Source: Candidatus Omnitrophota bacterium
GTDB taxonomy: Bacteria > Omnitrophota > Gorgyraeia > 2-01-FULL-45-10
DNA length: 64,000 bases
Direction: 5' to 3'
NCBI GenBank assembly: GCA_018823705.1
Contig: JAHJHP010000031.1
Span: 1,982 to 65,981, forward strand
In this document: piece by piece, positions 33,719-50,435 of the stretch
Numbering within the stretch: the stretch's first letter is position 1
Layout: each line of letters begins with the position of its first letter
Program-made: the position numbers and the translations under genes
Notes under the pieces: generated by a model
Told to the model about the DNA's origin: nothing
The model's database searches: none
The model's input: only the letters and a program-made list of their open reading frames with translations

Positions 33719-33732
33719 TTGGGAAATCAATT

Positions 33733-34857: not shown

Positions 34858-34877
34858 GTGCGCTTAAGGAGGGTACC

Positions 34878-35264: not shown

Positions 35265-35312
35265 AAAGCTTTGAGTTAGATTACACGTCCCCTAATTCAT
35301 TAGGATGACTTT

Positions 35313-35981: not shown

Positions 35982-35997
35982 AATAACAGACAATCCT

Positions 35998-36025
35998 TGA
36001 CTTAAGATAAGCGCATGCTATAATA
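35998..36025 (+). promoter_or_regulatory. sigma70-like promoter TTGACT-16-TATAAT driving the TPP riboswitch
   Basis: ccttgacttaagataagcgcatgctataataag, about 15 nt upstream of the riboswitch. Confidence 0.5.
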
Positions 36026-36311: not shown

Positions 36312-36417
36312 GGCCTCGGTCGGAGACCTCGGCACTTAGCCAATATCGTGGCTTAATAAACTTGGCCTCGGTCGGAGACCTCGGCACTTAGCCAATATCG
36401 TGGCTTAATAAACTTGG
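36312..36417 (+). repeat. two tandem copies of 52-nt leader repeat family D, immediately upstream of the thi4 RBS
   Basis: Two near-identical units (ggcctcggtcggagacctcggcacttagccaatatcgtggcttaataaactt), head to tail, with no spacer. Confidence 0.75.
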
Positions 36418-36428
36418 AGGGCGGATAA

Positions 36429-37238
36429 ATGTTTAAAAAGATAACAGAGTCTCAAATAAGCAGGGCCATTGTTGGTGAATTCACTAAGTGGTTTAATGAG
36501 TATATTGTTTCGGATGTTATAGTAGTAGGTGGAGGCCCCAGTGGCCTGATCGCGGCGCGTGATCTGGCGAATAGCGGCCTTAAGACGCTAATAATAGAGA
36601 GTAATAATTATATAGGCGGGGGCTTCTGGATAGGCGGATATTTTATGAATACCCTGACCTTCAGGGCTCCGTCAGACGAGATCCTTGATGAACTGAAGAT
36701 ACCTTATAAAGAGGTAGAAGACGGACTGTTCGTTGCGGATGGCCCTACCGCCTGCTCAAAACTCATTTCTGCGACCTGCGATTCCGGCGCTAAAATCCTG
36801 AACCTAACCAAATTTGACGATGTTGTCCATCGTAACAACAGAGTTGAGGGAGCAGTAATTAACTGGTCGCCGGTTTCTGCTCTACCGAGACAGCTCACCT
36901 GCGTAGATCCTATTGCTCTGGAATCAAAGGTTGTAATCGATGCTACCGGCCATGATGCCTGGGTGGCGAAGAGCCTTGAAAAGAGAGGGTTATTGAAACT
37001 GCAGACATACGGACCTATGGATGTGTGTTCCTCGGAGGATCTTGTAGTCGAAAAAACAGGGGAAGTATACCCCGGCTTATATGTGATGGGCATGGCAGCG
37101 GCTACCGTTCATGGCATACCACGCATGGGCCCAACATTCGGGGGGATGCTCTTCTCAGGCAGGAAAGCAGCTGAGCAGATAATAAAAAAATTGAATCAAA
37201 AAGAACAGTTTTCCGCTAAAGAAACTGTAGCTGTTTAA
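36429..37238 (+). CDS. thi4: thiazole biosynthesis enzyme Thi4 (archaeal/eukaryotic type)
   Basis: VIVVGGGPSGLIAA FAD/NAD fold. GMAAATVHGIPRMGPTFGGMLFSG. 269 aa. Downstream of the TPP riboswitch. Confidence 0.85.
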   Translation: MFKKITESQISRAIVGEFTKWFNEYIVSDVIVVGGGPSGLIAARDLANSGLKTLIIESNNYIGGGFWIGGYFMNTLTFRAPSDEILDELKIPYKEVEDGLFVADGPTACSKLISATCDSGAKILNLTKFDDVVHRNNRVEGAVINWSPVSALPRQLTCVDPIALESKVVIDATGHDAWVAKSLEKRGLLKLQTYGPMDVCSSEDLVVEKTGEVYPGLYVMGMAAATVHGIPRMGPTFGGMLFSGRKAAEQIIKKLNQKEQFSAKETVAV

Positions 37239-37265: not shown

Positions 37266-37441
37266 GTAGCCCGGGCTCCTGCCTACCTGCTTTCCTATTG
37301 GCAAGTAGGCAGGCAGGTAAGCCCGGGCTACAATCGTGTATAACCGTAATAGTTTAGCCGGAAGAACAACTTACGACGTAGGGGACATTTAAATGTCCCC
37401 TACAACCTCGTAGAGATACTTCTTTATGCTAAACTATTACG
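37266..37441. repeat. intergenic palindromic repeat cluster: family B hairpin (GTAGCCCGGGCTCCTGCCTACCTGC...GCAGGTAAGCCCGGGCTAC) plus an adjacent ~100-bp imperfect palindrome
   Basis: Family B unit recurs at 51707-51786. Arms cgtaatagtttagc (37345-58) / gctaaactattacg (37428-41) enclose the palindrome gtaggggacatttaaatgtcccctac. Confidence 0.7.
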
Positions 37442-37467: not shown

Positions 37468-37511
37468 TTGACAGATTTTAGGAATAGTGTATACTCTACT
37501 ATGTTAGTAGA
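37468..37511 (+). promoter_or_regulatory. promoter (TTGACA-16/17-TATACT) with overlapping 17-bp palindrome TCTACTAtgtTAGTAGA; candidate Rrf2 autoregulatory operator
   Basis: Hexamers and palindrome read from the sequence, about 25 nt upstream of the rrf2 start. Confidence 0.45.
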
Positions 37512-37534
37512 GATAGTCAAGATAAGGGGTTCTG

Positions 37535-37975
37535 ATGAGAGTAACGTATAGAGGAGATTACGCTTTAAAGGTGGTCTTGGCTTTGGCCCTGAACTATGGT
37601 AAAGACGTGGTAACGATCCACGAATTGGCCAAACGCATCGATGCTCCCATTAAGTTTTTGGAGCAAGTATTACTGGACCTGAAGAAGGGCGGTTTTGTGG
37701 AGTCCAGACGCGGCAAGATGGGTGGATATCGATTAGCCAGGCCGCCGGGCAATATAACGGTGGGCCAGGTAATAAGATTTATCGATGGCCCCACAGAGCC
37801 TATTTCTTGTGTAAGAAATGGGTATTCCAGTTGCGGTGACATGTATAAGTGTGTATTTAGAAAAGTGTGGCAGGATGTCGCGAAAACAACCTCAGATATC
37901 ATAGACAATGTAACTTTTGAGGCGCTGGCTTTCGAGGCTGATTCAGAACAAGAGGTACTTGTTTATTCGATTTAA
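37535..37975 (+). CDS. Rrf2 family transcriptional regulator (IscR/CymR-like, three-Cys cluster ligand motif)
   Basis: N-terminal wHTH (MRVTYRGDYALKVVLALAL...). C-x7-C-x5-C (SCVRNGYSSCGDMYKC). Confidence 0.85.
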   Translation: MRVTYRGDYALKVVLALALNYGKDVVTIHELAKRIDAPIKFLEQVLLDLKKGGFVESRRGKMGGYRLARPPGNITVGQVIRFIDGPTEPISCVRNGYSSCGDMYKCVFRKVWQDVAKTTSDIIDNVTFEALAFEADSEQEVLVYSI

Positions 37976-37994
37976 AAAAAAGGAGGAAGGGAAG

Positions 37995-38705
37995 ATGGGC
38001 GTTTTAAATGAGAAAGCGGATCTGAAAGAGTTGGTAGAGAAGTTGAATTTTAAGGAGAAAGTGGAGAGGTCAAAGGCGCTAATCGAGGAAGCATATAAAG
38101 TATACGGCGATGGACTTGTGGTGGCAAATAGCTTAGGGAAAGATTCGGTCGCGGTATGGGATCTCGCTAAAAGGGTAAATCCGAAAATACGCGGGTTTAT
38201 AGTGACGACCAGATATAAGCCGGTCGAGACTTTAAAATTCATGAAGGAGACCGTGAATAGGTATCCGGAGCTCAAAGTCTATAAGAATGATTCGGAGATA
38301 CCGGAACGGTTGTATGAAACAAAGCCGGACCTATGCTGCGATATATTAAAGGTTGAGCCTGTGAAGCGCGCCATAGAAGAGATGGGCGTTACATGCTGGG
38401 TGACGGGCTTGCGCTGCACCGAAGGCAGGACGCGCACCGACTTTCAGGAAGTAGAAGAGCGGGATAAGGGGCTGATAAAGCTTAACCCCATACTTATATG
38501 GAAAGAGCGCGAAGTTTGGCAATATCTGGCGCTATACGGGGTCCCTGTGAACCCTCTGTATGCGGAAGGCTATAGATCGCTCGGGTGCGCGCCGTGCTCA
38601 AAGATCACCAATGACGATAATGAGCGGGCCGGCCGCTGGATAGGAACGAGTAAATGCGGCGGCGAATGCGGTATACACACAAGGCCATTGAAGGGTAATA
38701 AATGA
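37995..38705 (+). CDS. cysH: phosphoadenosine/adenosine phosphosulfate reductase (PAPS/APS reductase family)
   Basis: PP-loop SLGKDS. Conserved C-terminal Cys residues (ECGIH tail). RBS aaggagg then ATG at 37995. Confidence 0.8.
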   Translation: MGVLNEKADLKELVEKLNFKEKVERSKALIEEAYKVYGDGLVVANSLGKDSVAVWDLAKRVNPKIRGFIVTTRYKPVETLKFMKETVNRYPELKVYKNDSEIPERLYETKPDLCCDILKVEPVKRAIEEMGVTCWVTGLRCTEGRTRTDFQEVEERDKGLIKLNPILIWKEREVWQYLALYGVPVNPLYAEGYRSLGCAPCSKITNDDNERAGRWIGTSKCGGECGIHTRPLKGNK

Positions 38706-39673
38706 TAATAGCGGTCACGATACTGGTTTCAGTATTTCTCGCGATGAACATGGGTATAAGTGGTTTCTCTGTGTCATTCGCGCCTTCCTTTGGAAGCAAT
38801 GTCCTGAGAAAAAACAAGGCGGCGCTACTCTATGGCCTTTGCGTAATAGCGGGAGCCTGCCTGATTGGCCCGAGAGTCGTAGAAACTCTGGTGCGGAAAA
38901 TATCCTACGCGCCATTAAACGTTGTTTCAAGCGGGATAATACTCATCTCGTGCGCTATAACCATGTTCTTAAGCAATGTTTTAAAGGTGCCGCAATCTAC
39001 GAGTTTCGTGACCGTCGCAAGCTTCGTGGGGTCGGGTCTATTTTACGGCAAGGTCAACTGGTATACGGTAGAAAAGATCCTGGTATTCGCAGTCATCTTT
39101 TCTATCGCATCCTTTGGCCTTACCGTTATAATTAAGCGTAGAATCTATCCGCCCCGTCAAGATAACCTGGGATTTTATGAGAAATTTTTTGTACACAGGG
39201 ATAAATTCAAGAAATTCATAATTTTCCACGATATGTATGCCGGTTTTAGCGTTGGTACGAATAATGTGGCCAATATCGTAGCTCCTTTAGTAGTCGCGTT
39301 AGGTATGGGAAATCTTTTCTGGTTCCTGGTGATCAGCCCGCTCTTTGGTTTAGGGGCATATTTTTGGGGAGAAAGAATGATACGTTCGGTATCTCGGGAC
39401 ATCGTACCTGTAGGAGAATTCTCCGCCAGCATAGTATCTTTTATCACAGCCACTTTTGTGCTTATCGCGTCTTTTTTAGGGCTGCCGACACCTTACGTTC
39501 AGTTTACGACATTTTCTCTATTGGGGATAAGCTGTGTAAAGGATGGGTTTAAAAAGACTTCAGAAAAATTGATTGTAAAAAAGATGCTGTGTGTCTGGAT
39601 ACTGGTCCCTCTCTTTACGGTCTTACTTAGTTTTAGTTTGCATCTTATCTGTATAAAATATCTACATCTATAA
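38702..39673 (+). CDS. PiT (inorganic phosphate transporter) family anion permease, putative sulfate permease (CysP-like)
   Basis: Polytopic protein with FSVGTNNVANIVAPL, a PiT-family signature-like motif. Embedded between cysH and cysK, as with B. subtilis CysP. Confidence 0.55.
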   Translation: MIIAVTILVSVFLAMNMGISGFSVSFAPSFGSNVLRKNKAALLYGLCVIAGACLIGPRVVETLVRKISYAPLNVVSSGIILISCAITMFLSNVLKVPQSTSFVTVASFVGSGLFYGKVNWYTVEKILVFAVIFSIASFGLTVIIKRRIYPPRQDNLGFYEKFFVHRDKFKKFIIFHDMYAGFSVGTNNVANIVAPLVVALGMGNLFWFLVISPLFGLGAYFWGERMIRSVSRDIVPVGEFSASIVSFITATFVLIASFLGLPTPYVQFTTFSLLGISCVKDGFKKTSEKLIVKKMLCVWILVPLFTVLLSFSLHLICIKYLHL

Positions 39674-39687
39674 TAGGAGAATGCGCT

Positions 39688-40623
39688 ATGCGTGAAGATT
39701 CGGAGATCACAAAAAATATTCTCGAAGTTATAGGGAGAACCCCCCTGATAAGGCTTAATCGTATCGCCGGCCGGGGTATGGCAGAAATACTTGCTAAAGT
39801 TGAATCGCTGAATCCGGGCGGCAGTGTTAAGGATAGAATAGCTCTTGCCATGATCGAGGACGCTCAAGCGAAGGGAGAGCTTAAGCCCGATTCGACTATT
39901 ATAGAACCTACCAGCGGGAATACAGGGATCGGCCTGGCAATGGTCTGCGCGGTCAAGGGCTACCGATGCATACTTACTATGCCTGAGACGATGAGCCTGG
40001 AGAGAATATATATCCTGAAAGCTTATGGCGCGGAAGTGGTTCTTACTCCCGGTTCTCAGGGCATGAAAGGGGCTATAAAGAAGGCGGAGGAGATCCAGGC
40101 AAAGACAGCAAATTCATTCATGCCTCACCAGTTTGAACATCCGGCAAATCCGAAAGTTCATAGAGAGACTACGGCTAGAGAGATACTTTCACAGACGGGC
40201 GGCAGGCTCGATGCTTTTGTCGCCGGGGTTGGTACCGGTGGAACCATAACGGGAGTCGGCGAGATATTGAAGAAGCATGATGCCCGAATAAGAATTATTG
40301 CCGTAGAGCCTGAAACGAGCGCCGTCCTATCAGGTAAAAAACACGGGACTCATAAGATACAGGGTATAGGAGCCGGATTTATACCCGATATTTTGAATAG
40401 GAACGTTATAGATGAGATTATAACCGTAAGCGACCGGGATGCGTATGAAGCAGCAAAGCTATTGGCTGTGAAGGAAGGCATATTCTGCGGCCCGTCTTCA
40501 GGCGCGGCTTTTGTAGCTGCGCTAAAGATTGCGAAGACATTGGGGGCCGGTAAGAGAGTCATAACGGTATTTCCGGATACAGGCGAAAGATATTTTTCAA
40601 TGAACCAATACTTTGAATTCTAA
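39688..40623 (+). CDS. cysK: cysteine synthase A (O-acetylserine sulfhydrylase)
   Basis: PLP lysine in SVKDR. TSGNTGIGLA. GTGGT loop. Confidence 0.9.
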   Translation: MREDSEITKNILEVIGRTPLIRLNRIAGRGMAEILAKVESLNPGGSVKDRIALAMIEDAQAKGELKPDSTIIEPTSGNTGIGLAMVCAVKGYRCILTMPETMSLERIYILKAYGAEVVLTPGSQGMKGAIKKAEEIQAKTANSFMPHQFEHPANPKVHRETTAREILSQTGGRLDAFVAGVGTGGTITGVGEILKKHDARIRIIAVEPETSAVLSGKKHGTHKIQGIGAGFIPDILNRNVIDEIITVSDRDAYEAAKLLAVKEGIFCGPSSGAAFVAALKIAKTLGAGKRVITVFPDTGERYFSMNQYFEF

Positions 40624-40638
40624 CCGGCGCGGAGCGAA

Positions 40639-41118
40639 ATGAAAGAGTTATATTATCCGATAGCGTTAAAGCTTAAAGGCAAAACCGCCCTGGTTGTCGG
40701 AGGCGGACAGGTCGCTGAGCGCAAAGTAAAGACCCTGCTTCGTTTTGGCGCGCGGGTCCGTCTTGTGTCGCCTGATTTAACAACAGCATTAAGAAGACTT
40801 TTTAAATCCCGCAAGATCGCCTGGCACAAGAGAGCTATAAGATCTTCGGACGTCGAAGGCGCGGATCTTATCATAGCAGCCACTTCTATCGCGGCCGTCA
40901 ATAAGAAGGTAAGTAAATGGGCGAAAAGAGAAGGAACTCCGGTAAATATTGTAGATAGAGCGGATTTAAGCAGTTTTATTTCGCCGGCAATTCTGCATAC
41001 ATCCAGGGCCGTTGTAGCCGTATATACGCACGGCCGGAACCCTGCTTTAAGCAGGGATCTGAAGAACTTTCTGAAGGAGAATTGGGATGTATTTTTATCT
41101 TATAGGGGTAGATTATAA
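40639..41118 (+). CDS. precorrin-2 dehydrogenase / sirohydrochlorin ferrochelatase (siroheme synthase N-terminal domain type, SirC/CysG-N)
   Basis: LKGKTALVVGGGQVAERKVKTLL NAD-binding motif typical of the CysG N-terminal domain. 159 aa. Confidence 0.75.
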   Translation: MKELYYPIALKLKGKTALVVGGGQVAERKVKTLLRFGARVRLVSPDLTTALRRLFKSRKIAWHKRAIRSSDVEGADLIIAATSIAAVNKKVSKWAKREGTPVNIVDRADLSSFISPAILHTSRAVVAVYTHGRNPALSRDLKNFLKENWDVFLSYRGRL

Positions 41119-42070
41119 AAGTTCGACGATCGATACGCGCGAAAAGCTCTACCGTAATAGAAAGGCCATCTCCGGTTTCTGCGCAAGCCATCTCCCCCAT
41201 GAAGCAGCTCTCCTTACGACTTGTAACCGCATAGAGATCTATGGCCTTACAAAATACGCTGACGATGCGCTTGGGCATATCGCCGCTTTTTCCGAACGTC
41301 TCCCTGAATTTTCAAAGTACGCGTATGTGAAATACGGAGAAGCGGAAGTGTTTCATCATGCGCTCAGGCTGGGCGTCGGACTCGAGTCGCAGCTTAAGGG
41401 AGAGCCGCAGATATTGGCGCAGCTCGAGGCGTGGAGTTCAGGCGACAGAGTGCCGCTTCCTATTAAGGTTTTATGGGATAGGGCTATTACATTAGCGCGA
41501 AAAATACGAGTTGCGTCGAAGCTAAACGAGGATAATGATAATATAGCTACTATCGTGCTTGAAGATATAAGGAGACGTCTGGGTGGGCGCAGAAAGTATG
41601 AAATCGTAATTGTAGGGACAGGCAAGATCGCCGAACTTTTCTCAGGATCCCGGCCGATTGGCGCGCATCTTCTTTTCGCGGCCCATAAGAATTATCAAAA
41701 AGCACAAATGCTGGCAATGAATTCAGGCGGAGACGCGCTGTTTTTAAAGGATCTGCCTGGCATCATAGCCAGGACGGATGCATTGATATGCGCGACATCG
41801 AGCCCGCATCATGTTATTGAAAAGGATATCTTTAACAATCTGGCCGTTGGTCGTGAGTATCCGCTATATATTTATGATCTTGCGATTCCGAGGGATGTGG
41901 AGCCGACCTCAGGACGCGTAAATGGCATATTTTTGAATAATCTCGACAGTTTGAGATATCTATTTTACAGATATAACAAGTCGAAACAGGAGCGCATAGA
42001 GCTGGCATCCGATCTGATAGGCGATGTGTTAAAAATTCATCAGGAGCTCGCTCATGGCAAAGACCATTAA
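41087..42070 (+). CDS. hemA: glutamyl-tRNA reductase (short form, 327 aa)
   Basis: Catalytic Cys in LTTCNRIEIY. NADPH domain IVIVGTGKIAE. Confidence 0.8.
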   Translation: MYFYLIGVDYKSSTIDTREKLYRNRKAISGFCASHLPHEAALLTTCNRIEIYGLTKYADDALGHIAAFSERLPEFSKYAYVKYGEAEVFHHALRLGVGLESQLKGEPQILAQLEAWSSGDRVPLPIKVLWDRAITLARKIRVASKLNEDNDNIATIVLEDIRRRLGGRRKYEIVIVGTGKIAELFSGSRPIGAHLLFAAHKNYQKAQMLAMNSGGDALFLKDLPGIIARTDALICATSSPHHVIEKDIFNNLAVGREYPLYIYDLAIPRDVEPTSGRVNGIFLNNLDSLRYLFYRYNKSKQERIELASDLIGDVLKIHQELAHGKDH

Positions 42071-42707
42071 AGTCGGGACGCGGCCGAGCGCTCTTGCGCT
42101 AAAGCAGGTTGAAGAAGTGCGCAAGCGCTTGCCGCAGTATCACATAGAGACCGTTCTTATCGAAACTCGCGGCGACAAAGATAAGATCTCTTCTCTATCG
42201 GATAAAGAAAATAGCGACTTTTTTACACGCGAGATCGAGCAAGCTCTAATAGATGGGTCTATTGACGCGGCCATTCATAGCGCGAAGGACCTGGAAGATG
42301 TTATGTCGAGAGAATTGGTAATAGCGGCGATGACGTCTCCTATCAGCCCTTTCGAATGTTTGGTGTCTCGGGGAGGTTCGACGATGGAGAAGCTTCCTTT
42401 GGGCGCCTGCGTAGGCACTAGTAGCCGGAAGCGAAGAAGAGCGCTTATGAATTTCAGGCCGGACCTCGACGTAAAGGATATACGCGGCGATATTGATGAA
42501 AGACTGGCGCAGTTGAATAGCGGGAAGTTTGACGCTATTATCGTCGCGCATGCTGCCTTGATCAGATTGGGATATGAAGATAGGATCGCCGAGATCATTC
42601 CCAGAGAAATAATGGAGCCCCACCCTTTACAGGGAAGCCTCGCGGTCCAGATCCGTCGAGACAGGGATGACTTGTCGGCAATTTTTAGGAGCTTAGATGG
42701 AAAATAA
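42054..42707 (+). CDS. hemC: hydroxymethylbilane synthase (porphobilinogen deaminase) lacking C-terminal domain 3
   Basis: Domains 1-2 align to HemC (VGTRPSALALKQV, GTSSRKR, DAIIVAHAALIRLG). The ORF ends at 217 aa, where the cofactor-Cys domain would begin. Confidence 0.7.
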   Translation: MAKTIKVGTRPSALALKQVEEVRKRLPQYHIETVLIETRGDKDKISSLSDKENSDFFTREIEQALIDGSIDAAIHSAKDLEDVMSRELVIAAMTSPISPFECLVSRGGSTMEKLPLGACVGTSSRKRRRALMNFRPDLDVKDIRGDIDERLAQLNSGKFDAIIVAHAALIRLGYEDRIAEIIPREIMEPHPLQGSLAVQIRRDRDDLSAIFRSLDGK

Positions 42708-43416
42708 GAAGGGTAAAGTTTATATAGTAGGAGCCGGCCCGGGCGACCCGGAACTTATAAGCGTGAAAGGGCTGAAGGCACTCAAAAAAGCGGATTGCGT
42801 ATTGTATGATTTTTTGTCTTCCCCGGCGCTATTAAAATATGTTAAAACGGGCGCTAAAAAGATATGCGTAGGCAAAGCGAATGGCCTGCATCTTAAGGAA
42901 CAGGGTGATATAAATGAGTTACTTTACAAATATTCTCAGGTTTATAGATATGTCGTGCGCCTCAAAGGCGGCGATCCGTTTGTATTCAGCCGCGGTTTTG
43001 AAGAGGCGCGGTACTTGGCCGAGAAGAGAGTAAAATGTGAGGTGATCCCGGGAATAACGTCGGCCATCGCGGGCCCGGAAAGTTTCGGAATTCCGCTCAC
43101 GATAAAAAATAAGATACAATCCTTTGCGGTGTTGACCGGACGCAAAGAGAATCCAAATGCCGAAATCGATGCGCCCGATTGCCGGACGCTCGTGTATGTG
43201 ATGGGTGTAGCCAATATAAAGAATATAGTGAAGGCATTACGGAAGAGAGGCCGTCCCGATAAGACTCCGTGCGCATTCATAGAACGAGCGACCACCAGGA
43301 AGGCGAGGATCGTGACAGCCACGATAAAGACTATAGCGAGAGAGGTTGTGAGGCAAAAAGTGAAGCCTCCCGCTATTTTGATTGTAGGTGAGGTCGTAAA
43401 GTATGCTAAAAAATAA
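42697..43416 (+). CDS. cobA: uroporphyrinogen-III C-methyltransferase (SUMT)
   Basis: VYIVGAGPGDPELISVKG SAM-MT motif. 239 aa. Confidence 0.9.
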   Translation: MENKKGKVYIVGAGPGDPELISVKGLKALKKADCVLYDFLSSPALLKYVKTGAKKICVGKANGLHLKEQGDINELLYKYSQVYRYVVRLKGGDPFVFSRGFEEARYLAEKRVKCEVIPGITSAIAGPESFGIPLTIKNKIQSFAVLTGRKENPNAEIDAPDCRTLVYVMGVANIKNIVKALRKRGRPDKTPCAFIERATTRKARIVTATIKTIAREVVRQKVKPPAILIVGEVVKYAKK

Positions 43417-44335
43417 AAAGACTACCATCAGCGTAAAGGATCTGGTCTACCCTTTATTTGTAAGAGAGGGAATAGGTATATGCGAGGAGATACCTTCCAT
43501 GCCCGGTATTTACAGGTTCCCTCTTGACGCTATTGCCAGGGAAACCCGGGCTCTGGTGAAGTTGGGGATAGGGGCTGTTTTACTCTTCGGTGTGCCGACC
43601 GGGAAAAGCCGGGAAGGCTCAGAAGCATATAAAAAAGATAATGTAGCCGCCAAAGCCGTAACAAAACTTAAGCGAAAGTTTCCGGATCTTACCGTTATGA
43701 CCGATGTGTGTCTGTGTGCGTATACATCGCATGGGCATTGCGGCGTTATTCTGCCGGGATGCAGGACTATAGCTCATAAAACGACGCTTGATGCGCTCTG
43801 CAGGATGGCGTTATCCCACGCCGAAGCCGGCGCGGATTATGTGGCGCCTTCGGCTATGGCAAAAGGGCAGGTATGGGCTATAAGAAGAGCATTGGATGCC
43901 CACGGTTTTAAGGATACCGGGATAATGGGGTATTCAGCGAAGTACGCTTCAAATTTCTACGGCCCATTCAGGGATGCGGCTAATTCATCTCCGTTATTTG
44001 GGGACAGAAGCGCGTATCAACTCGGATTTTCTAACAGCGCGTCGGCTATGAAAGAGATAGCGGCTGATATAAGAGAAGGCGCAGACATAGTAATGGTCAA
44101 GCCGGCATTGGCATATCTGGATATAATCAGGGAGGCCGCGAACCGCTTCCGGGCGCCGCTTGCAGCCTATAACGTGAGCGGCGAATACGCCATGGTCAAA
44201 CATGGCGCAAAGCTGGGTTTGTGGAATGAAAAGAAGGTTGTGCTCGAGATCATTACTTCGATTAAACGTGCGGGGGCGGATCTGGTCATTACATATCATG
44301 CTAAGGACATTGCGAAATGGCTAAAAGAACGATAA
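43403..44335 (+). CDS. hemB: porphobilinogen synthase (ALA dehydratase), Zn/Cys-rich type
   Basis: DVCLCAYTSHGHCG metal site. Active-site Lys region. Confidence 0.9.
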   Translation: MLKNKKTTISVKDLVYPLFVREGIGICEEIPSMPGIYRFPLDAIARETRALVKLGIGAVLLFGVPTGKSREGSEAYKKDNVAAKAVTKLKRKFPDLTVMTDVCLCAYTSHGHCGVILPGCRTIAHKTTLDALCRMALSHAEAGADYVAPSAMAKGQVWAIRRALDAHGFKDTGIMGYSAKYASNFYGPFRDAANSSPLFGDRSAYQLGFSNSASAMKEIAADIREGADIVMVKPALAYLDIIREAANRFRAPLAAYNVSGEYAMVKHGAKLGLWNEKKVVLEIITSIKRAGADLVITYHAKDIAKWLKER

Positions 44336-45567
44336 ATTCTAAATTATTCTCTGAGGCGCAAAAATATCTGGTGGGCGGCGTCAATAGCCCCGTGCGGGCT
44401 TTTAATTATGTAGGCGGTGACCCTCTTATAATTAAGAGAGGCCATGGCTCAAAAGTCTATGACCACGATGGTAATGAGTATATCGATTATGTGCTTTCAT
44501 GGGGAAGCCTCATTCTTGGCCATGCGTTTCCCGATGTTGTGAATGCGGTCAAGGCCGCGGCTTGCGACGGTTTGAGTTTCGGCACGACAAATATAAAGGA
44601 AGTGGAGCTGGCAAAGTTGATCCATAAGGCGATACCGTTTGTAGAAAAGATAAGGTTTGTCAATTCAGGCACAGAAGCTGTTATGAGCGCGGTGAGGCTT
44701 GCCAGAGGGCATACCGGCAGGGACAAGATCGTGAAGTTTGAGAACTCTTATCACGGACACGCCGATTATCTCCTAGTCTCAGGAGGCTCGGGACTCGCAA
44801 CCCTAAATATTCCGCAAAGCCCCGGTGTCCCCCGAAGTTTCATCAAAGACACAATGGTCCTTCCTTACGGCGATTTCCGAAAACTGGAAGAGGCATTTGA
44901 ACTGCACGGAAGAGAGATAGCTGCTGTGCTGGTGGAGCCCGTGGGAGGCAATTATGGTGTCATGCCCCCCGATACAGGTTTTTTGCGGCATCTAAGGAAG
45001 ATCACTGATCGATACTCCGCGCTTCTGATCGCCGATGAAGTGATCACCGGATTTCGTTTCTCATTCGGTTCTTTTATGCATAGGTCGGGCGTATTGCCCG
45101 ATCTTATATGCCTCGGGAAGATCATAGGCGGAGGGTTACCTATAGGAGCTTACGGCGGTGGCGGTAAGATAATGAATAAACTCGCTCCGCTCGGAAAAGT
45201 CTATCAGGCATCAACATTTTCCGGGAATCCGGTCGTTATGCAGGCAGGCATATCCACACTTAAAGTGTTAGCGTTATCCGGGGGAAGATATAGGCAGATT
45301 GAAAGATTCGCGGAACTTTTAAGCAGCGCTATTGAAAGAGCCGCGAGGTCATGTAATATCGATTTAAAAGTGAGCAGATTTGGCTCCATGTTCAGCCTGA
45401 AGTTTGAGAGAAAGGATGATTTTAAGAAGTTCTACAGAGGGTTGCTCCGGAGCGGAGTCTATTTTGCGCCTTCGGAATTTGAATCGAATTTTGTGTCATT
45501 TGCGCACACAAAAAAAGATATTGATGATACAATAAATTTGATAAGAGTTATTTTGGCGAAGATATAA
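44317..45567 (+). CDS. hemL: glutamate-1-semialdehyde 2,1-aminomutase
   Basis: Class III aminotransferase fold. Length and motifs (VNSGTEAVM, GKIIGGGLP) typical of HemL. Confidence 0.9.
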   Translation: MAKRTINSKLFSEAQKYLVGGVNSPVRAFNYVGGDPLIIKRGHGSKVYDHDGNEYIDYVLSWGSLILGHAFPDVVNAVKAAACDGLSFGTTNIKEVELAKLIHKAIPFVEKIRFVNSGTEAVMSAVRLARGHTGRDKIVKFENSYHGHADYLLVSGGSGLATLNIPQSPGVPRSFIKDTMVLPYGDFRKLEEAFELHGREIAAVLVEPVGGNYGVMPPDTGFLRHLRKITDRYSALLIADEVITGFRFSFGSFMHRSGVLPDLICLGKIIGGGLPIGAYGGGGKIMNKLAPLGKVYQASTFSGNPVVMQAGISTLKVLALSGGRYRQIERFAELLSSAIERAARSCNIDLKVSRFGSMFSLKFERKDDFKKFYRGLLRSGVYFAPSEFESNFVSFAHTKKDIDDTINLIRVILAKI

Positions 45568-45583
45568 AATAAGCGGAGGATAA

Positions 45584-46291
45584 ATGGAAAATATCGATTA
45601 TGAAGATTTAAAGAAACGGGGATTCTTAAGACAAGCCCAGGAAGGTTTTTTTGTATTAAGGACGAGAATGCCGGGTGGCAACTATAAGAGAGAAGACCTC
45701 GAAAAACTGGCCGTGATAGCGCAAAAGTATGCCAAAGGATTTGTCCATGCCACTGTCCGTCAGGGGCTGGAGATCCCTTTTATAAGATTTGAAAATATTC
45801 CTGAGGTCGAATCCGAGGTAAAAAAAACCGGTATTCTGATAGGTGCGTCCGGTCCGCGGCTCAGGACGACCGTTGCCTGCCCCGGCAACAACTGGTGCAA
45901 ACGAGGCCTCGTAAATACATTTTCTCTTGCCGATAGAATAGAAAAAGAGCCGGGGCTAAAATGCGGGTTAGACCTGCCGCACAAATTTAAGATAGCTATC
46001 TCCGGATGCCCCAACGCCTGTACGCGGCCTCAAGTCTCCGAGATAGGCATGCACGGTCAAGCCGATAGTCTGACGAAAGCGGCCGGCTATACCGTATATA
46101 TAGGAGGTTGCGGAGGCAGAATATCAAAGTCGGGTATAAAGCTCGAAAAAGTTTATACGGAAGATGAAGTTATGCGTCTGGTAGAGAAAGTGGTAAAATT
46201 TTATAAAGATCATGCTAAGCCCCGACAGCGGCTCGGCGCATTGATCGATGAATTCGGAATAGACAATTTTTATAAAACATGTTCGTGTTGA
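45584..46291 (+). CDS. small siroheme-[4Fe-4S] sulfite/nitrite reductase hemoprotein (low-molecular-weight assimilatory-type sulfite reductase-like)
   Basis: C-x5-C ... C-x3-C siroheme/Fe-S ligand pattern (CPGNNWC ... CPNAC) in a ~235-aa single-module protein. Confidence 0.6.
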   Translation: MENIDYEDLKKRGFLRQAQEGFFVLRTRMPGGNYKREDLEKLAVIAQKYAKGFVHATVRQGLEIPFIRFENIPEVESEVKKTGILIGASGPRLRTTVACPGNNWCKRGLVNTFSLADRIEKEPGLKCGLDLPHKFKIAISGCPNACTRPQVSEIGMHGQADSLTKAAGYTVYIGGCGGRISKSGIKLEKVYTEDEVMRLVEKVVKFYKDHAKPRQRLGALIDEFGIDNFYKTCSC

Positions 46292-46341
46292 TATGAGTTG
46301 CCCCCATATACACAAAGAGATACAATATGGGTGTGAGTAAT

Positions 46342-46380
46342 AGTCCGGGCTTAAGCCCGGACTACAATTGTGGATAACTT
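46342..46380. repeat. palindromic repeat family C (AGTCCGGGCTTAAGCCCGGACT plus CAATTGTGGATAACT)
   Basis: The CAATTGTGGATAACT 15-mer also occurs at 51772-51786 and, reverse-complemented, inside the MITE at 48386-48400. Confidence 0.65.
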
Positions 46381-46381
46381 T

Positions 46382-46615
46382 ATGAAGAAGATGTCTTTAA
46401 TAAAACTCAAGGCGAATCGCAAGGGCAGGATCGTTGAGATTTTAGGAGGCTCGAACTTGCAGAGCAGGTTGATGAATATGGGTGTGTTTAAGGGCAAGGA
46501 AATCAGTAAGCTCAGCCATGTTGGGCTGAGAGGCCCCGTAGTAATAAAATCCGGCAGAAGCATTCTAGCTTTAGGTCATGGCGTAGCAGCCAAAGTGATA
46601 TTAGAGACAGAATGA
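46382..46615 (+). CDS. feoA: FeoA family protein
   Basis: SH3-like FeoA (GRIVEILGGSNLQSRLMNMGVFKGKEI). Confidence 0.85.
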   Translation: MKKMSLIKLKANRKGRIVEILGGSNLQSRLMNMGVFKGKEISKLSHVGLRGPVVIKSGRSILALGHGVAAKVILETE

Positions 46616-48342
46616 TAAAGAAGATATATTTAATCGGTAATCCTAATGTAGGGAAAAGTGTAGTATTTTCACGTCTCACCGGCGTGCAGGTAATATCTTC
46701 AAACTATCCCGGTACTACCATAGAGCTTTGTAAGGGTTATCTCAGCTTAGGCGCCGAAAAGATCGAAATCGTAGACCTGCCCGGAACTTACTCGTTGGAA
46801 CCTACCTCAAAAGCGGAAGAAGCCGCAATCTCTTTATTAAAGGAATACTCCAAAGACGAAATTGTGGTCGTCAATGTACTGGATTCGACCAATCTGGAAA
46901 GAAACTTACTTCTCACCTTACAACTTATTGAAGATGGGTTCCCGACAATTGTATGCCTGAACATGTGTGATGATGCTGTTCATAAGGGTGTCCATATCGA
47001 TATCAAGACGCTGGAAGATATCCTCCATGTTCCGGTGATCTCGACCTGCGCGATAACGGGAGCAGGCATAAAATTATTGATCGAAAGGATCAAGGAAGCG
47101 GCCCCTGTTCCGAGAGATAAACTCCTCCATGAAGAGCAATGGAAAGAGATAGGTTTGATAATAAACCGGGTCCAGCGCCTGGAACATCGCCATCATACTT
47201 TCAGGGAGGCTTTAGAGGACGCATCCGTACGGCCAGTCACCGGTCTTGTAATGGCAGCAGGCGTAATTTACGCTTCATTTAAGATTGTGCGTTTTATAGG
47301 TGAGTTTATTATCAACAGAATAACGGACCCGATATTTATCAATCTTTACCAACCCATACTGGAAAAGCTGACCCGTCATTGGCAGGAACAGAGTTTTTTA
47401 TTTCATCTGCTGATAGGCGATTTAATCAACGGCAAGATCGACTTTAAACAATCACTCGGCGTATTAACAACGGCTCCATACATTGAATTCGGAATGGTAT
47501 TGCCGTATATCATCTCGTTCTATTTTATCTTAAGTCTTTTAGAAGATATAGGATATCTGCCGCGCCTGGCGATATTATTGGACAATCTTCTGCATCGGTT
47601 GGGGCTGCATGGTTTTGCGATCATTCCCATGCTTTTAGGTTTTGGATGTAACGTACCCGGCATATTAGCTACCCGTACCTTAGAATCGAAACGTGAGAGG
47701 TTTATCGCGGCGACATTGATCTCGATAGGCGTGCCGTGTGTGCCGTTACAAGCCATGATATTCGGATTATTAGGTAGCTTTGGAGGATTTTATGTAGCAG
47801 GGGTATATCTGGTATTATTTTCTTTAGTCCTGATATTAGGATTGATCCTGAACCGTGTCTTAAAAGGTTATAGCCCGGAATTCCTGCTGGAGATCCCTCC
47901 GTACAGATTTCCTCCGTTGGACATTTTAGGCAGGAAATTATACTTTCGCATAAAGGGGTTTATAATTGAGGCGGTTCCGATCGTGCTCGTTGGAGTTGCC
48001 GTTATAAACATCCTTATTTACTTTAACGTATTCAGTATAATATCCGGTTTTTTTGCGCCGGTTATTCACGATCTATTAGGACTGCCAAAAGAGTCGATAA
48101 TTGCGCTGGTGATCGGATTCTTCAGAAAAGATGTAGCGGTCGGGATGTTGATGCCATTAGGGCTTACTGCCAAGCAGCTATTCATCGCCGCGACATTATT
48201 GGCAATATCGTTTCCGTGCGTTGCCACGTTTATAATCCTGTGGAAAGAGTTGGGTTTGAAAGATTTGATCAAATCCACCCTCATTATGATAACTATAAGC
48301 ATCATCGTGGGCTCAGCGCTCAATCTTCTGATATTACGCTGA
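46612..48342 (+). CDS. feoB: ferrous iron transport protein B (short form, 576 aa)
   Basis: N-terminal GTPase G1 GNPNVGKS, G3 DLPG. Polytopic permease domain. Confidence 0.9.
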   Translation: MIKKIYLIGNPNVGKSVVFSRLTGVQVISSNYPGTTIELCKGYLSLGAEKIEIVDLPGTYSLEPTSKAEEAAISLLKEYSKDEIVVVNVLDSTNLERNLLLTLQLIEDGFPTIVCLNMCDDAVHKGVHIDIKTLEDILHVPVISTCAITGAGIKLLIERIKEAAPVPRDKLLHEEQWKEIGLIINRVQRLEHRHHTFREALEDASVRPVTGLVMAAGVIYASFKIVRFIGEFIINRITDPIFINLYQPILEKLTRHWQEQSFLFHLLIGDLINGKIDFKQSLGVLTTAPYIEFGMVLPYIISFYFILSLLEDIGYLPRLAILLDNLLHRLGLHGFAIIPMLLGFGCNVPGILATRTLESKRERFIAATLISIGVPCVPLQAMIFGLLGSFGGFYVAGVYLVLFSLVLILGLILNRVLKGYSPEFLLEIPPYRFPPLDILGRKLYFRIKGFIIEAVPIVLVGVAVINILIYFNVFSIISGFFAPVIHDLLGLPKESIIALVIGFFRKDVAVGMLMPLGLTAKQLFIAATLLAISFPCVATFIILWKELGLKDLIKSTLIMITISIIVGSALNLLILR

Positions 48343-48348
48343 GGCATA

Positions 48349-48463
48349 GGGGACGTGTCACTTTGGGACACTCCACTTTATATAAGTTATCCACAATTGT
48401 AGTCCGGGCTACAAGTTCGCTATTAGTTCTCTTAAGTGGAGTGTCCCAAAGTGACACGTCCCC
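48349..48463. mobile_element. MITE-like element, copy 2: 115 bp with perfect 30-bp terminal inverted repeats (GGGGACGTGTCACTTTGGGACACTCCACTT)
   Basis: First 30 nt are the exact reverse complement of the last 30 nt. The core carries the family C motif ttatccacaattgtagtccgggctac. Confidence 0.75.
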
Positions 48464-48491
48464 TAATTCGCGTTAAATCAAAATATATATA

Positions 48492-48543
48492 TTGACGTAG
48501 ATACGAGATGTGATATTATGGTTATGGACATATGTTCATAACC
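48492..48543 (+). promoter_or_regulatory. promoter (TTGACG-16-TATTAT) followed by a 24-bp near-palindrome GGTTATGGACATATGTTCATAACC (candidate operator)
   Basis: Read directly from the sequence. One mismatch in the palindrome. Located immediately upstream of the DUF134 regulator gene. Confidence 0.4.
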
Positions 48544-48556
48544 AGCGGAGATTATT

Positions 48557-48862
48557 TTGCGCCCAAAAAAGACCAGATGGATACGTTGTTTACCCGGCGA
48601 AAGATGCTTCAAGCCACTTTGCAAGCCTTTGAATAAACTGAAAAGCGTGCATCTTACTCTTGACGAACTTGAAGCCTTAAGGCTCGCAGATCTTGACGGA
48701 ATGAAACAGGTTGATGCAGCAAAAAGACTTAAGATATCCAGGCCCACATTCTCAAGGATCGTATCTTCAGCGCGGAATAAGATAGCTGATGGCTTAGTTA
48801 ATATCAAAGCTATAAGGATTGAAGGGGGTTGCTGTAGAGTGATAAGGAGGAACGCGCGATGA
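48557..48862 (+). CDS. DUF134 (UPF0251) family putative DNA-binding protein
   Basis: FKPLCKP...LTLDELEALRLADLDGMKQVDAAKRLKISRPTFSRIV sigma-70 region-4-like HTH. TTG start per the ORF track. Confidence 0.7.
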   Translation: MRPKKTRWIRCLPGERCFKPLCKPLNKLKSVHLTLDELEALRLADLDGMKQVDAAKRLKISRPTFSRIVSSARNKIADGLVNIKAIRIEGGCCRVIRRNAR

Positions 48863-50163
48863 AAGGTCTAAAGAAACTCTATTGGCTTATAGGCATATTC
48901 ATCGTTATGTACTTTTTGCCGCTGGGGAATCCCAAGATAACGAATGCCATCTTTGAAGCATTTAAGCTTCTTCAATGGTACGTAATTAATCATACGCTCG
49001 CATGCGTGGTACCGGCCATGTTTATAGCAGGTGCAATATCGACATTTCTGTCCCAGGCCTTTGTTATGCGATATCTCGGCCCTAACGCAAACCGCGGCAT
49101 GGCCTATGCCGTAGCGTCTGTGTCGGGAGTTATACTCGCAGTATGTTCCTGCAGCGTCTTGCCGATGTTTGCCGGTATTTATACCATGGGAGCGGGGCTT
49201 GGGCCCGCAAGCGCTTTTCTTTATTCGGGTCCCGCGATAAACGTCATGGCAATATTTTTATCAGCACGCGTTCTTGGGTTCGACATAGGATTAGCCAGGG
49301 CAGTTGGCGCGATAGTCTTTGCCTGTGTCATAGGGCTATGCATGGCCTTTATCTTCAGGCGATCCGAACATGCCCGAACAAAAAAAGCGATGGAGCTTCC
49401 TCCTCCTCCGCATCCTGCGAGGCCGTTATGGAAGACAGCGCTCTACTTCTTATGCATGGTATTATTTCTTGTTTTTAGCGATTGGTATAATACCAACGAT
49501 GTAACTATTACGCTAAAAAACGGGATAGTAATGAAGGTGAATATCCAATATTCCACGCAGGACTTTATCGAAGCTAAGAAGTACGAAGCCGGTGGTAAGC
49601 TGGCTATAGATGCCGAGCGCCTAAACAGGCCTGATATAGCCGAAATAAAACCGGAAGATAACTTTGTCATGAGAGTTCACGCCATTAAGTGGTACCTCGC
49701 CGGGCTTATGGGGTTGACTATACTTATTATGCTGCATCGATGGTTCAAAAAAGACGAGATCCGACAGTGGCTTACTGCGACATGGGACTTCGGGATGATG
49801 ATAGTGCCGCTTCTATTCGGCGGTGTATTCTTGACCGGGTTTGTTGGAGCGTTACTTCCTGAGAAAGTGGTTGCGGCGTTTGTTGGAGGCAATAGCCTAT
49901 TTTCGAATTTTTTTGCATCCTTTATAGGCGTATTTTGGTACTTTGCCACTCTTACCGAGATACCCATTACGCAAATGTTAATGCGTCTTGGCATGGGCAA
50001 GGGGCCTGCGCTTGCGCTTCTTCTGGCCGGCCCTGCATTGTCAGTGCCGAGCATCCTGGTTATTAATAAGGTATTAGGATGGCGCAAGACGCTTGTTTTC
50101 TTCGTGCTTATAGTGGGATTTTCGACTATAGCGGGATATGTTTTTGGAATGATAATACGTTAA
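48859..50163 (+). CDS. DUF318 (YraQ/ArsP-like) family permease
   Basis: Polytopic protein with the Cys-containing motif AVCSCSVLPMFAGIYTMGAG. Confidence 0.7.
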   Translation: MKGLKKLYWLIGIFIVMYFLPLGNPKITNAIFEAFKLLQWYVINHTLACVVPAMFIAGAISTFLSQAFVMRYLGPNANRGMAYAVASVSGVILAVCSCSVLPMFAGIYTMGAGLGPASAFLYSGPAINVMAIFLSARVLGFDIGLARAVGAIVFACVIGLCMAFIFRRSEHARTKKAMELPPPPHPARPLWKTALYFLCMVLFLVFSDWYNTNDVTITLKNGIVMKVNIQYSTQDFIEAKKYEAGGKLAIDAERLNRPDIAEIKPEDNFVMRVHAIKWYLAGLMGLTILIMLHRWFKKDEIRQWLTATWDFGMMIVPLLFGGVFLTGFVGALLPEKVVAAFVGGNSLFSNFFASFIGVFWYFATLTEIPITQMLMRLGMGKGPALALLLAGPALSVPSILVINKVLGWRKTLVFFVLIVGFSTIAGYVFGMIIR

Positions 50164-50191
50164 ATGCAGGACTTAAAGGCGAGGAGATGAG

Positions 50192-50425: not shown

Positions 50426-50435
50426 GGAGGAAAGA

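Follow-up and report, generated by a model that had tools for sequence, protein, structure and literature searches.

We consider it likely that a gene cluster on the plus strand of this 64-kb Candidatus Omnitrophota sequence (at 37.4-48.4 kb) is, in its main part, a sulfur-assimilation operon fused with a dedicated siroheme pathway. The whole stretch analyzed, which derives from a metagenome-assembled genome, is called the window below. Thirteen back-to-back plus-strand open reading frames (ORFs) run from rrf2 to feoB (37535-48342). The first eleven (37535-46291) are rrf2, cysH, a PiT/CysP-like permease gene, cysK, sirC, hemA, hemC, cobA, hemB, hemL and sir, all co-directional, with neighbors either 14-19 bp apart or overlapping by 4-32 bp. 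An initial annotation, made from the sequence alone, had already outlined such a cluster, and every gene identity it gave was upheld by Pfam and NCBIfam profile searches in which scores were set against the family cutoffs. It had described overlaps of 4-20 bp throughout; the tight co-directional run stands, but the sirC/hemA overlap, the largest in the run, is 32 bp and some junctions are gaps. It had also overlooked the truncation of HemC, HemA and SirC and the placement of CysH in an atypical subfamily.

Conserved gene order and the sulfur genes

The evidence for the cluster as a functional unit includes its conservation. A scan of species-representative genomes yielded 64 related loci (given L-numbers where single loci are named) that carry a reductase 55-73% identical to that of the window, nearly all of them labeled Candidatus Omnitrophota, and gene order was read by tblastn of the window proteins against these loci. 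Upstream sequence of at least 5.8 kb was available for 48 loci. In 41 of these, sirC-hemA-hemC-cobA-hemB-hemL-sir has exactly this order, and cysH lies upstream in 39 of the 41 (directly in 32, with PiT and/or cysK interposed in 7). Of the 64 loci, 35 include an Rrf2 gene, which either leads the cluster or lies just 3' of the reductase gene. The PiT gene (11/64) and cysK (36/64) are lineage-specific insertions. At conserved four-fold degenerate codons the third positions are only 29-34% identical for every cluster gene. Since silent sites have fully diverged, the shared gene order reflects selection, and its recurrence in about 40 other species with saturated synonymous sites places the arrangement far beyond chance. 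The coupling of cofactor synthesis to the siroheme-dependent enzyme, proposed at first for this one sequence, holds across the phylum. The tight junctions and the order kept across species likewise bear out the operon-like character of the rrf2-to-reductase stretch.

The genes around the cluster point in the same direction. In relatives, the reductase gene is followed on its 3' side by metY, cysK, metX and metW, or alternatively by genes for a ferredoxin, a ThiI-like protein, CysK and HcyBio with NIL-ferredoxin and then by thiamine genes. Directly upstream of the operon in the window lies thi4 (36429-37238; TIGR00292, 256 bits against a cutoff of 148), encoding a sulfide-dependent ADP-thiazole synthase. 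With sulfur and thiamine genes as neighbors and Thi4 upstream, the cluster would be the sulfide-producing core of a sulfur-assimilation neighborhood. Thi4 consumes free sulfide, and a repetitive extragenic palindromic (REP)-like element separates its gene from the operon. When all ORFs of the 64 loci were clustered, the only conserved neighbors were DUF2061, MetY, MetX, MetW, a ThiI-like protein, ferredoxin, ThiF and ThiH. DUF2061, a membrane protein of 73 aa, is encoded directly 5' of cysH in 28 of the 64 loci (e.g., L056:3660-3881) and is missing from the window. It occurs in most Omnitrophota that lack the PiT/cysK insertion, a placement that points to an unrecognized role in sulfur uptake or assimilation.

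The last gene of the run (45584-46291, plus strand; NIR_SIR_ferr and NIR_SIR domains) encodes a siroheme-[4Fe-4S] protein of 235 aa. An identical protein (100% identity) is encoded on contig JAHJBI010000181.1 (GCA_018813565.1) and on five further metagenomic contigs. The four cysteines of its cluster motif, C99-x5-C105...C142-x3-C146, are invariant in 64 sequences. The best match in the PDB was the sulfite-reductase domain of Fsr, the F420-dependent sulfite reductase (7NP8; E = 5e-34), with an alignment that skips the inserted ferredoxin domain (residues 486-540). R26, R94, K134 and K136 align with the sulfite-binding residues R355, R423, K460 and K462 of the Methanocaldococcus jannaschii enzyme (MjFsr), and R59 aligns with MjFsr R388, an arginine of the type found in assimilatory sulfite reductases (aSir). 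The equivalent of Arg388 and the CX5C..CX3C motif mark assimilatory enzymes as opposed to DsrA/B. The protein is full length at about 235 aa in 64 species (55-73% identity), so that its length and its assimilatory sulfite-reductase traits speak against its being a fragment. Its nearest relatives outside the Omnitrophota are 31-45% identical, and most of these (the 31-34% class) have about 279 aa.

These features resemble those of group I Dsr-LP proteins, low-molecular-weight sulfite reductases of the assimilatory type (alSiR), which are defined in the literature by a coupled siroheme cluster, Arg/Lys residues and the absence of a ferredoxin domain. Shared traits are the size of about 25 kDa, the single siroheme-[4Fe-4S] site (CX5C..CX3C), the sulfite-binding Arg/Lys residues and the lack of a ferredoxin domain; the comparison here is with this published definition of the group. 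The physiological role of characterized alSiRs has been called unclear, whereas the gene described here lies within an explicit assimilatory operon with its own cofactor pathway. Fsr has the four substrate-binding residues, the aSir-type arginine and the cluster motif in common with the window enzyme, which lacks both the F420H2-oxidase domain and the inserted two-cluster ferredoxin domain (Fsr 485-545); the electron donor is presumably a free ferredoxin. In Fsr two identical protomers pair head to tail, with the siroheme bound in one and the cluster in its partner (PMC10229431), and by analogy a homodimer is the likely form of the small reductase as well.

A different reading has been published. 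Seymour et al. (2023) annotated such genes in 23 Omnitrophota genomes as a putative reversible desulfoviridin-type DsrA (COG2221), which would make the hemoprotein a dissimilatory or detoxifying sulfite reductase and the cluster a system for sulfite respiration, sulfide oxidation or detoxification. That the closest solved structure is the sulfite-detoxifying Fsr, and that the role of alSiRs is regarded as unclear, would fit this view. However, the protein is a single chain of 235 aa with no DsrB partner, and neither DsrC nor DsrMK is encoded in any of the neighborhoods. An equivalent of Arg388 is present, the cysteine motif is CX5C..CX3C and not CXnCCX3C of the DsrB type, and the gene shares an operon with cysH and cysK, beside metY/metX/metW, HcyBio and thiamine genes. 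We regard a dissimilatory or detoxifying function as very unlikely.

Nitrite is the other substrate to be weighed. If the hemoprotein were a small assimilatory nitrite reductase, similar to NirA or to a domain of NirB, the siroheme genes would serve nitrogen assimilation. In NCBIfam it does in fact match the NirB siroheme domain best (105.6 bits), with ferredoxin-nitrite reductase next (104.2 bits), its strong PDB matches include plant nitrite reductases, and the substrate-binding Arg/Lys residues are common to nitrite and sulfite reductases. However, the two NCBIfam scores are far below the respective cutoffs of 578 and 594 bits, and the best PDB match is a sulfite reductase. The gene ends a cysH-led operon in 39 of 41 species, with no nitrate/nitrite transporter or reductase nearby. 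Classification of the protein by profile models, which the initial annotation had proposed as a check, could be carried out, but all NCBIfam matches fell far below cutoff and did not separate nitrite from sulfite; the sulfite assignment is made because of the active-site traits and the cysH-led operon. A nitrite reductase thus appears quite improbable, and the evidence argues for an assimilatory-type sulfite reductase that is neither a fragment nor a DsrA.

CysH (37995-38705, plus strand) is a sulfonucleotide reductase of the Fe-S class, acting on adenosine 5'-phosphosulfate (APS) or 3'-phosphoadenosine 5'-phosphosulfate (PAPS) (PF01507, 142.7 bits; NF002537, 173.5 vs. 154). Its start is the ATG at 37995, which is preceded by an AAGGAGG ribosome-binding site and is the same on the public contig, and not the TTG at 37917. 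The protein has an Arg-loop, CC and CxxC motifs as cluster ligands and an invariant ECGIH at its C terminus, and LCCD and GCAPC align with the APS reductases of Mycobacterium tuberculosis and Pseudomonas aeruginosa, the best PDB matches. Nonetheless, the protein scores below the APS-reductase subfamily model (TIGR02055, 132.6 vs. 235.3) and its nucleotide-binding motifs are atypical: SLGKDS replaces the canonical S-x-x-x-E-D at the P-loop, and VTTRYKP replaces LDTG. Both are invariant in 42 species, and SLGKDS resembles a PP-loop such as that of CysD. At three Omnitrophota loci (L045, L058 and L066) an ordinary CysH with canonical motifs is encoded instead.

The conservation of this subfamily is unusual. 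The median identity of CysH is 83%, compared with 39-66% for the other cluster proteins, and 49% of its positions are invariant across 42 species even though silent sites are saturated. Horizontal transfer was considered as the cause and ruled out, as the four-fold third positions are 31% identical, like those of the other genes. Among 1.84 billion representatives, searched exhaustively, only 67 proteins matched CysH at E ≤ 1e-30. Identity to the nearest full-length relatives is 47-58%, and they have SxGKDS...CC...GYRSLGCxPC...GGECGIH in common with it; one of them (P0137) carries an N-terminal thioredoxin-like CxxC domain, a fusion that supports a reductase role. Another relative (P0133) has a C-terminal hexapeptide-repeat (acyltransferase-like) domain. 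APS appears the likelier substrate because the Fe-S ligands are present and because cysC is listed in neither of the two legible Omnitrophota entries of the KEGG Orthology (KO) table of Seymour et al., one of which lists sat. It is less likely, but a CysH with SxGKDS could use a donor other than APS or PAPS or activate the donor itself, and either property would explain the absence of a nearby sat.

Between cysH and cysK lies the PiT/PHO4 permease gene (38702-39673, plus strand; PF01384, 122 bits), whose product is a CysP-like putative sulfate importer. cysK itself (39688-40623, plus strand) encodes an O-acetylserine sulfhydrylase, or cysteine synthase A (TIGR01139, 449 vs. 351).

A probable siroheme pathway with short enzymes

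Starting from glutamyl-tRNA, the six middle genes lead to sirohydrochlorin, but neither uroporphyrinogen-III synthase nor a dedicated ferrochelatase is among their products. None of the heme-branch genes hemE, hemN, hemG, hemH or ahb is present in the run, and the end product should therefore be siroheme and not heme. The heme biosynthesis claimed in the initial annotation must be dropped accordingly, as no gene leads beyond precorrin-2/sirohydrochlorin. CobA (42697-43416, plus strand) is a uroporphyrinogen-III C-methyltransferase (SUMT; TIGR01469, 262 vs. 185) without a HemD half; in the PRK07168 model, which has 474 positions, it aligns with 2-237 only. HemB (43403-44335, plus strand) is a porphobilinogen synthase of the zinc type with an invariant Cys103/105/113 triad (NF006762, 428 vs. 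297), and HemL (44317-45567, plus strand) is a glutamate-1-semialdehyde 2,1-aminomutase (NF000818, 549 vs. 398). Three further cysteines of CobA (C57, C162 and C192) are invariant or nearly so across 46 Omnitrophota orthologs, and they are not known to be conserved in model SUMTs.

The remaining three enzymes are short. SirC (40639-41118, plus strand), a CysG-N-like precorrin-2 dehydrogenase of 159 aa (PF13241; TIGR01470, 122.6 vs. 62.3), covers only positions 1-138 of the 205 in TIGR01470, and its orthologs have 153-193 aa. It is possibly also the ferrochelatase; none of SirB, CbiX and CbiK was found in the window or in the conserved neighborhood. HemA (41087-42070, plus strand; 327 aa) is a glutamyl-tRNA reductase with the GlutR_N and Shikimate_DH domains only. 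It lacks the C-terminal dimerization domain (TIGR01035 positions 3-327 of 416, 164.4 vs. 209.6), while the catalytic Cys46 (TCNR) is invariant in orthologs of 318-374 aa. HemC (42054-42707, plus strand) is a two-domain hydroxymethylbilane synthase of 217 aa (PF01379, 207 bits; TIGR00212, 210 vs. 164). It matches positions 1-215 of 293 in TIGR00212 and ends at the equivalent of E. coli residue ~220, and thus lacks both domain 3 (PF03900) and C242, the cysteine to which the dipyrromethane primer is covalently bound. In 45 HemC sequences there is no invariant cysteine. The catalytic Asp and the cleft Arg/Lys residues are kept (equivalents of R11, K83, D84, R131/132, R149 and R155), and an AlphaFold (AF2) model with a predicted local distance difference test (pLDDT) score of 93.9 superposes on domains 1-2 of 1PDA (TM-scores: TMq 0.89, TMt 0.66).

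The short HemC is the rule in these bacteria. It has 205-238 aa in 44 of 46 species, the other two having in-frame fusions, and all 120 homologs among the matches listed are about 217 aa long with PF01379 only. Orthologs have no C-terminal extensions, and the domain-3 motif [GA]GCxxP[IVLM] gave no credible match in six-frame translations of 1.35 Mb of related loci. The fusions are a SirC-HemA-HemC protein of 693 aa (L066:5011-7092) and a HemA-HemC protein of 502 aa (L032:5741-7249). Such natural fusions support a functional siroheme module and hint that the short enzymes act as a complex.

The short forms might instead be decaying remnants, in which case siroheme or its precursors would come from a host or partner, in keeping with a host-dependent way of life that has been proposed for Omnitrophota. 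Three enzymes do lack domains of the model enzymes, hemD and a chelatase gene are missing locally, and reduced Omnitrophota genomes have been described (Seymour et al. 2023). However, the truncation points are the same in more than 40 species with saturated synonymous sites, no frameshifts were seen, the catalytic residues are kept, the predicted fold is confident and in-frame fusions occur occasionally. Pseudogene decay of the truncated enzymes is excluded by this conservation pattern together with the confident predicted HemC fold. The KO table of Seymour et al. also argues against dependence on a host: both of its legible Omnitrophota entries, which have hemA/L/B/C, cobA and cysH, also have K01719 (hemD). 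Loss of the pathway by decay is extremely unlikely in our view, and, as far as these two entries can indicate, hemD is probably encoded elsewhere in the genome. An ORF at 51830-52678 in the window (282 aa) was considered as a divergent HemD and rejected, having no Pfam or NCBIfam match and motifs (DGDW.., HCHEE) unlike HEM4. The same ORF is conserved beside DsbD in sister contigs and overlaps an AlaDh/PNT-like start by 4 bp.

If the short enzymes are functional, HemC is either a split enzyme with domain 3 supplied in trans or one with a non-canonical mechanism. In the second case siroheme would be the only tetrapyrrole of Omnitrophota, assembled non-canonically by way of a HemC that lacks domain 3 and the cysteine, with no hemD in the operon, a proposal we regard as unlikely. 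Should the genomes contain no separate domain-3 or HemD protein, hydroxymethylbilane and uroporphyrinogen III would have to arise by a non-canonical route. Options are a non-covalently primed or cofactor-free two-domain polymerase, or a complex of HemC with the short HemA and SirC.

Short HemC and HemA models exist in the databases. NF002202/PRK01066 (241 positions) is matched by the window HemC at positions 19-230, ending after domains 1 and 2, and NF001909/PRK00676 (338 positions) is a HemA model likewise without the C-terminal domain. We take both to represent chlamydial forms. Omnitrophota are usually placed near the Planctomycetes-Verrucomicrobia-Chlamydiae (PVC) group, which contains the Chlamydiae. 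However, the window proteins score well below the cutoffs of these models (HemC 163 vs. 251, HemA 27 vs. 478), and the HemC and HemA of Omnitrophota therefore form a separate lineage. A search of a limited literature collection gave nothing relevant on a HemC without domain 3 or on missing hemD in Chlamydia.

The Rrf2 regulator, its putative operator and the feoAB boundary

The first gene of the run (37535-37975, plus strand) encodes an Rrf2 family regulator of 146 aa (PF02082, 124 bits, cutoff 30; TIGR00738, 115.6 vs. 73.3) that scores below every named equivalog cutoff (IscR 88.9 vs. 207.6, CymR 84.6 vs. 195, NsrR 46 vs. 182; RirA and SufR-Xantho likewise). The Rrf2 proteins of the related loci are of two types. 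Type A comprises the window protein and 11 others at 50% identity or more. D8, C92, C100 and C106, the putative Fe-S ligands, do not vary among these 12 orthologs, as would be expected of Rrf2 proteins that bind an Fe-S cluster. The 29 proteins of type B have identities of 28-39%; about a third of them keep the cysteines, and the others, like CymR, lack them. Control of the operon by an Fe-S-type Rrf2 protein, as first proposed, thus remains plausible. With IscR, NsrR and RsrR the window protein shares the winged-helix Rrf2 fold family, three C-terminal cysteines, an acidic residue at position 8 and a palindromic operator overlapping the regulator's own promoter. It differs in cysteine spacing (C-x7-C-x5-C vs. 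C-x5-C-x5-C in IscR) and in its predicted targets, which unlike theirs are sulfur and siroheme genes.

The promoter of rrf2 is of the sigma-70 type, TTGACA(37468)-16-TATACT(37490) (37468-37495, plus strand), and with 11 of 12 consensus positions it is the best in the 36-52 kb region. The 17-bp palindrome TCTACTAtgtTAGTAGA reported earlier at 37495-37511 is real, but it actually extends to 19 bp (37494-37512) as a perfect 8+3+8 palindrome, CTCTACTA-TGT-TAGTAGAG. This putative Rrf2 operator takes in the final two bases of the -10 box and also overlaps the predicted start site. The conserved block runs on past the palindrome to about 37519 (GATAGT). In an alignment of ten regions 5' of type-A rrf2 genes and one further site, the -35 hexamer is invariant and the -10 box nearly so, followed by the conserved block CTACTATGTTnATAGAG-ATnATAG; the block CTACTATGTTnATAGAGATnATAG is kept at the same position in these 11 promoters, which come from diverged species. 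Locus L025 has rrf2, with its own block, 3' of the reductase gene, and a second copy with a promoter precedes cysH there, as expected of an operator by which Rrf2 controls the cys-hem-sir operon. The sequence CTCTACTA-N3-TAGTAGAG is not known to resemble the IscR, NsrR or CymR boxes. The motif is unique in the window, where no further operator copy was found, in particular none upstream of feoA. By analogy with IscR and NsrR, holo-Rrf2 would repress when the supply of sulfur or Fe-S clusters is adequate.

In four relatives the spacer between rrf2 and cysH encodes a short Met/Cys-rich leader peptide (L008:2242-2307, L013:3093-3137, L015:2251-2370 and L019:2183-2266). The peptides precede a GC-rich hairpin along with a T-run (e.g., MTALFSGIMCCIKN and MSMAVNCYGMMCCMQMRG...), and they are candidate Cys/Met-sensing transcription attenuators. 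The corresponding spacer in the window is only 19 bp and has no such leader.

The initial annotation had placed Feo iron uptake in the Rrf2 unit as well. feoA (46382-46615, plus strand; 77 aa, PF04023) and feoB (46612-48342, plus strand; 576 aa, TIGR00437, 359 vs. 316) are co-directional with the operon and begin 90 bp downstream of it with no T-run terminator between, feoAB adjoins the cluster in L032, L036 and L040, and siroheme and Fe-S clusters need iron. All of this would suit a single Rrf2-controlled iron-sulfur regulon unit spanning the whole 11-kb run. However, the 90-bp gap contains two stable hairpins (-29.8 kcal/mol, z = -3.8) and a promoter-like site at 46298-46326. Its structured part (46301-46382, plus strand) consists of a hairpin, CCCCATAT...ATATGGG, then a REP-like hairpin, AGTCCGGGCTTAAGCCCGGACT, with the tail ACAATTGTGGATAAC. 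A perfect 27-nt inverted repeat (46354-46380 and 48384-48410) brackets feoAB, and it belongs to a species-specific element. No operator copy accompanies feoA, and the adjacency is seen in only 3 of the 64 other loci, where feoAB lies in a different position, upstream of cysH. It is thus rather unlikely that the entire run is one regulon unit, and the claim cannot be kept in its original form; feoAB is probably a separate or only partly coupled unit. Iron uptake beside a siroheme/Fe-S operon makes biochemical sense, but Feo lies outside the conserved unit, and nothing points to its control through the Rrf2 operator.

The repeat element noted earlier between the reductase gene and feoA was confirmed as one of a REP-like family with four copies in the window against none expected (37266-37348, 46343-46382, 48384-48410 inverted, and 51707-51789). 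The 83-nt copies are 92% identical, and the family is confined to contigs of this one species and absent from the loci of other Omnitrophota species. These species-specific hairpins mark operon boundaries; hairpin repeats also occur at 4552-4576/4782-4801. The repeat tail includes a perfect DnaA-box 9-mer, TTATCCACA, at 46369-46377, 48387-48395 and 51776-51784 (3 vs. 0.38 expected) and a one-mismatch variant, TTATACACA, on the minus strand at 37337-37345; the GC skew gave no sign of an origin in the window. feoAB is closed by a palindromic repeat of 119 nt (48347-48465) with a 32-bp stem (-72.6 kcal/mol, z = -10.9). Right after it lies the breakpoint of a 2.5-kb segment (48470-51010) that is absent from the near-identical contigs L003 and L005 and contains genes for a DUF134 regulator, an ArsP-type permease, a Thioredoxin_3 protein and an ArsF-like protein and the 5' part of a DsbD-like gene. 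Its absence may be a strain-level indel or an assembly variant.

Several other features of the window were recorded. A 57-nt repeat family (88-93% identity) occurs at 33473-33529, 36312-36368 and 36364-36420, the latter two in tandem just upstream of thi4. A cation-transport run at about 19000-36000 includes ExbB/ExbD, two TrkA, TrkH, MgtE, Nramp, DUF502, CNNM/CorC and GDT1, and these genes upstream and FeoAB downstream make up an ion-homeostasis neighborhood. Inside a 357-aa ORF (3465-4538), a 33-nt tandem coding repeat of about 7-8 copies (3780-4063) encodes a Lys/Glu/Ala-rich stretch of the AKKAEKEAxAK type. Rfam and tRNA scans of the window detected no RNA family and no tRNA.

The proposed pathway and its relation to known systems

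The closest described system is the cysH operon of Bacillus subtilis, cysH-cysP-sat-cysC-sumT/ylnD-sirB/ylnE-sirC/ylnF, which is repressed by the Rrf2 protein CymR. Both operons are under Rrf2 control, begin their sulfur genes with an Fe-S CysH, include a PiT-family CysP and carry siroheme genes (SUMT and SirC). Unlike that operon, the one described here lacks sat, cysC and sirB and adds hemA, hemL, hemB, hemC, cysK and a sulfite reductase, which is a 235-aa alSiR in place of the CysJI of B. subtilis. The regulators differ as well: three cysteines and Asp8, the Fe-S type, are found here, in a protein below the CymR cutoff, whereas B. subtilis CymR has none. The tetrapyrrole genes have their own parallel in the clostridial cluster sirC(cysG-N)-hemA-hemC-cobA/hemD-hemB-hemL, known for example from Clostridium josui, whose order sirC-hemA-hemC-cobA-hemB-hemL is identical to that of the window. 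In contrast to the clostridial proteins, CobA has no fused HemD half, HemC no domain 3 and HemA no dimerization domain, and the hem genes lie between cysH and the sulfite reductase gene and are not linked to B12 genes.

Several points weigh against the reading of the cluster as a sulfur-assimilation operon with a dedicated siroheme pathway. That the rrf2-to-sir stretch is one operon is deduced from gene spacing. The palindrome is statistically ordinary, with 2.0 matches expected in the window at up to 3 mismatches, so that the weight of the putative operator comes from cross-species conservation and not from window statistics. The PiT permease scores below the cutoff for the sulfate permease CysP (NF053884, 190.8 vs. 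400). The departure of CysH from canonical sequence at the P-loop and LDTG makes APS no more than its probable substrate, and nitrite as the substrate of the reductase is compatible with its sequence alone. To our knowledge, every characterized HemC needs domain 3 and the cysteine for its cofactor. In addition, sat, cysDN, cysC, hemD, cysE and sirB/cbiX were not found among the plus-strand ORFs of the window by Pfam, NCBIfam or the precomputed Pfam annotations of identical contigs. The absence of sat, cysDN, cysC and hemD from the run, stated in the initial annotation, thus extends to the whole window, and sat, hemD and a dedicated ferrochelatase are absent from all 64 neighborhoods as well. 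The pathway as written therefore depends on genes not seen here. Sulfate activation, uroporphyrinogen-III cyclization and perhaps chelation would be provided by genes elsewhere or by unrecognized activities of the short enzymes.

With these points in mind, we propose the following scheme for the sulfur-assimilation operon. One promoter (37468-37495) would drive rrf2-cysH-cysP(PiT)-cysK-sirC-hemA-hemC-cobA-hemB-hemL-sir. Rrf2, with three cysteines and Asp8, probably holds an Fe-S cluster; bound to the 19-bp palindrome, where it would cover the -10 box and start site, it would repress its own operon when sulfur or Fe-S supply is sufficient. Sulfate would be imported by the PiT permease, and an ATP sulfurylase whose gene lies elsewhere would activate it to APS. 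CysH, an Fe-S enzyme, would then reduce APS, its presumed substrate, to sulfite, the small siroheme/[4Fe-4S] reductase, perhaps as a homodimer, would reduce sulfite to sulfide, and CysK would incorporate sulfide into cysteine. For the cofactor, HemA and HemL would convert glutamyl-tRNA to 5-aminolevulinate and HemB would convert this to porphobilinogen. HemC, if its two-domain form works as supposed, would produce hydroxymethylbilane, which a HemD encoded elsewhere would cyclize to uroporphyrinogen III. CobA would convert uroporphyrinogen III to precorrin-2, and SirC would yield sirohydrochlorin and probably also insert iron, if it is bifunctional like Met8p/CysG-N. feoAB would be an iron-uptake module inserted between repeats and at most co-transcribed by read-through.

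In its main lines the cluster agrees with a specialist's expectations of a sulfur-assimilation operon. What is added to this picture is the phylum-wide conservation, the correction of the DsrA assignment, the HemC without domain 3 and the hyper-conserved, atypical CysH without a nearby sat. As the published DsrA reading is corrected, roles in sulfur cycling that were built for Omnitrophota on this annotation need revisiting. The cluster is also a natural example of an enzyme encoded together with its own cofactor pathway under one Fe-S-type regulator with a recognizable operator, and the two-domain HemC gives a handle on whether the covalent dipyrromethane cofactor and domain 3 are indispensable or supplied in trans. 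Finally, a poorly understood, uncultured phylum gains a concrete conserved route from oxidized sulfur to cysteine and methionine.

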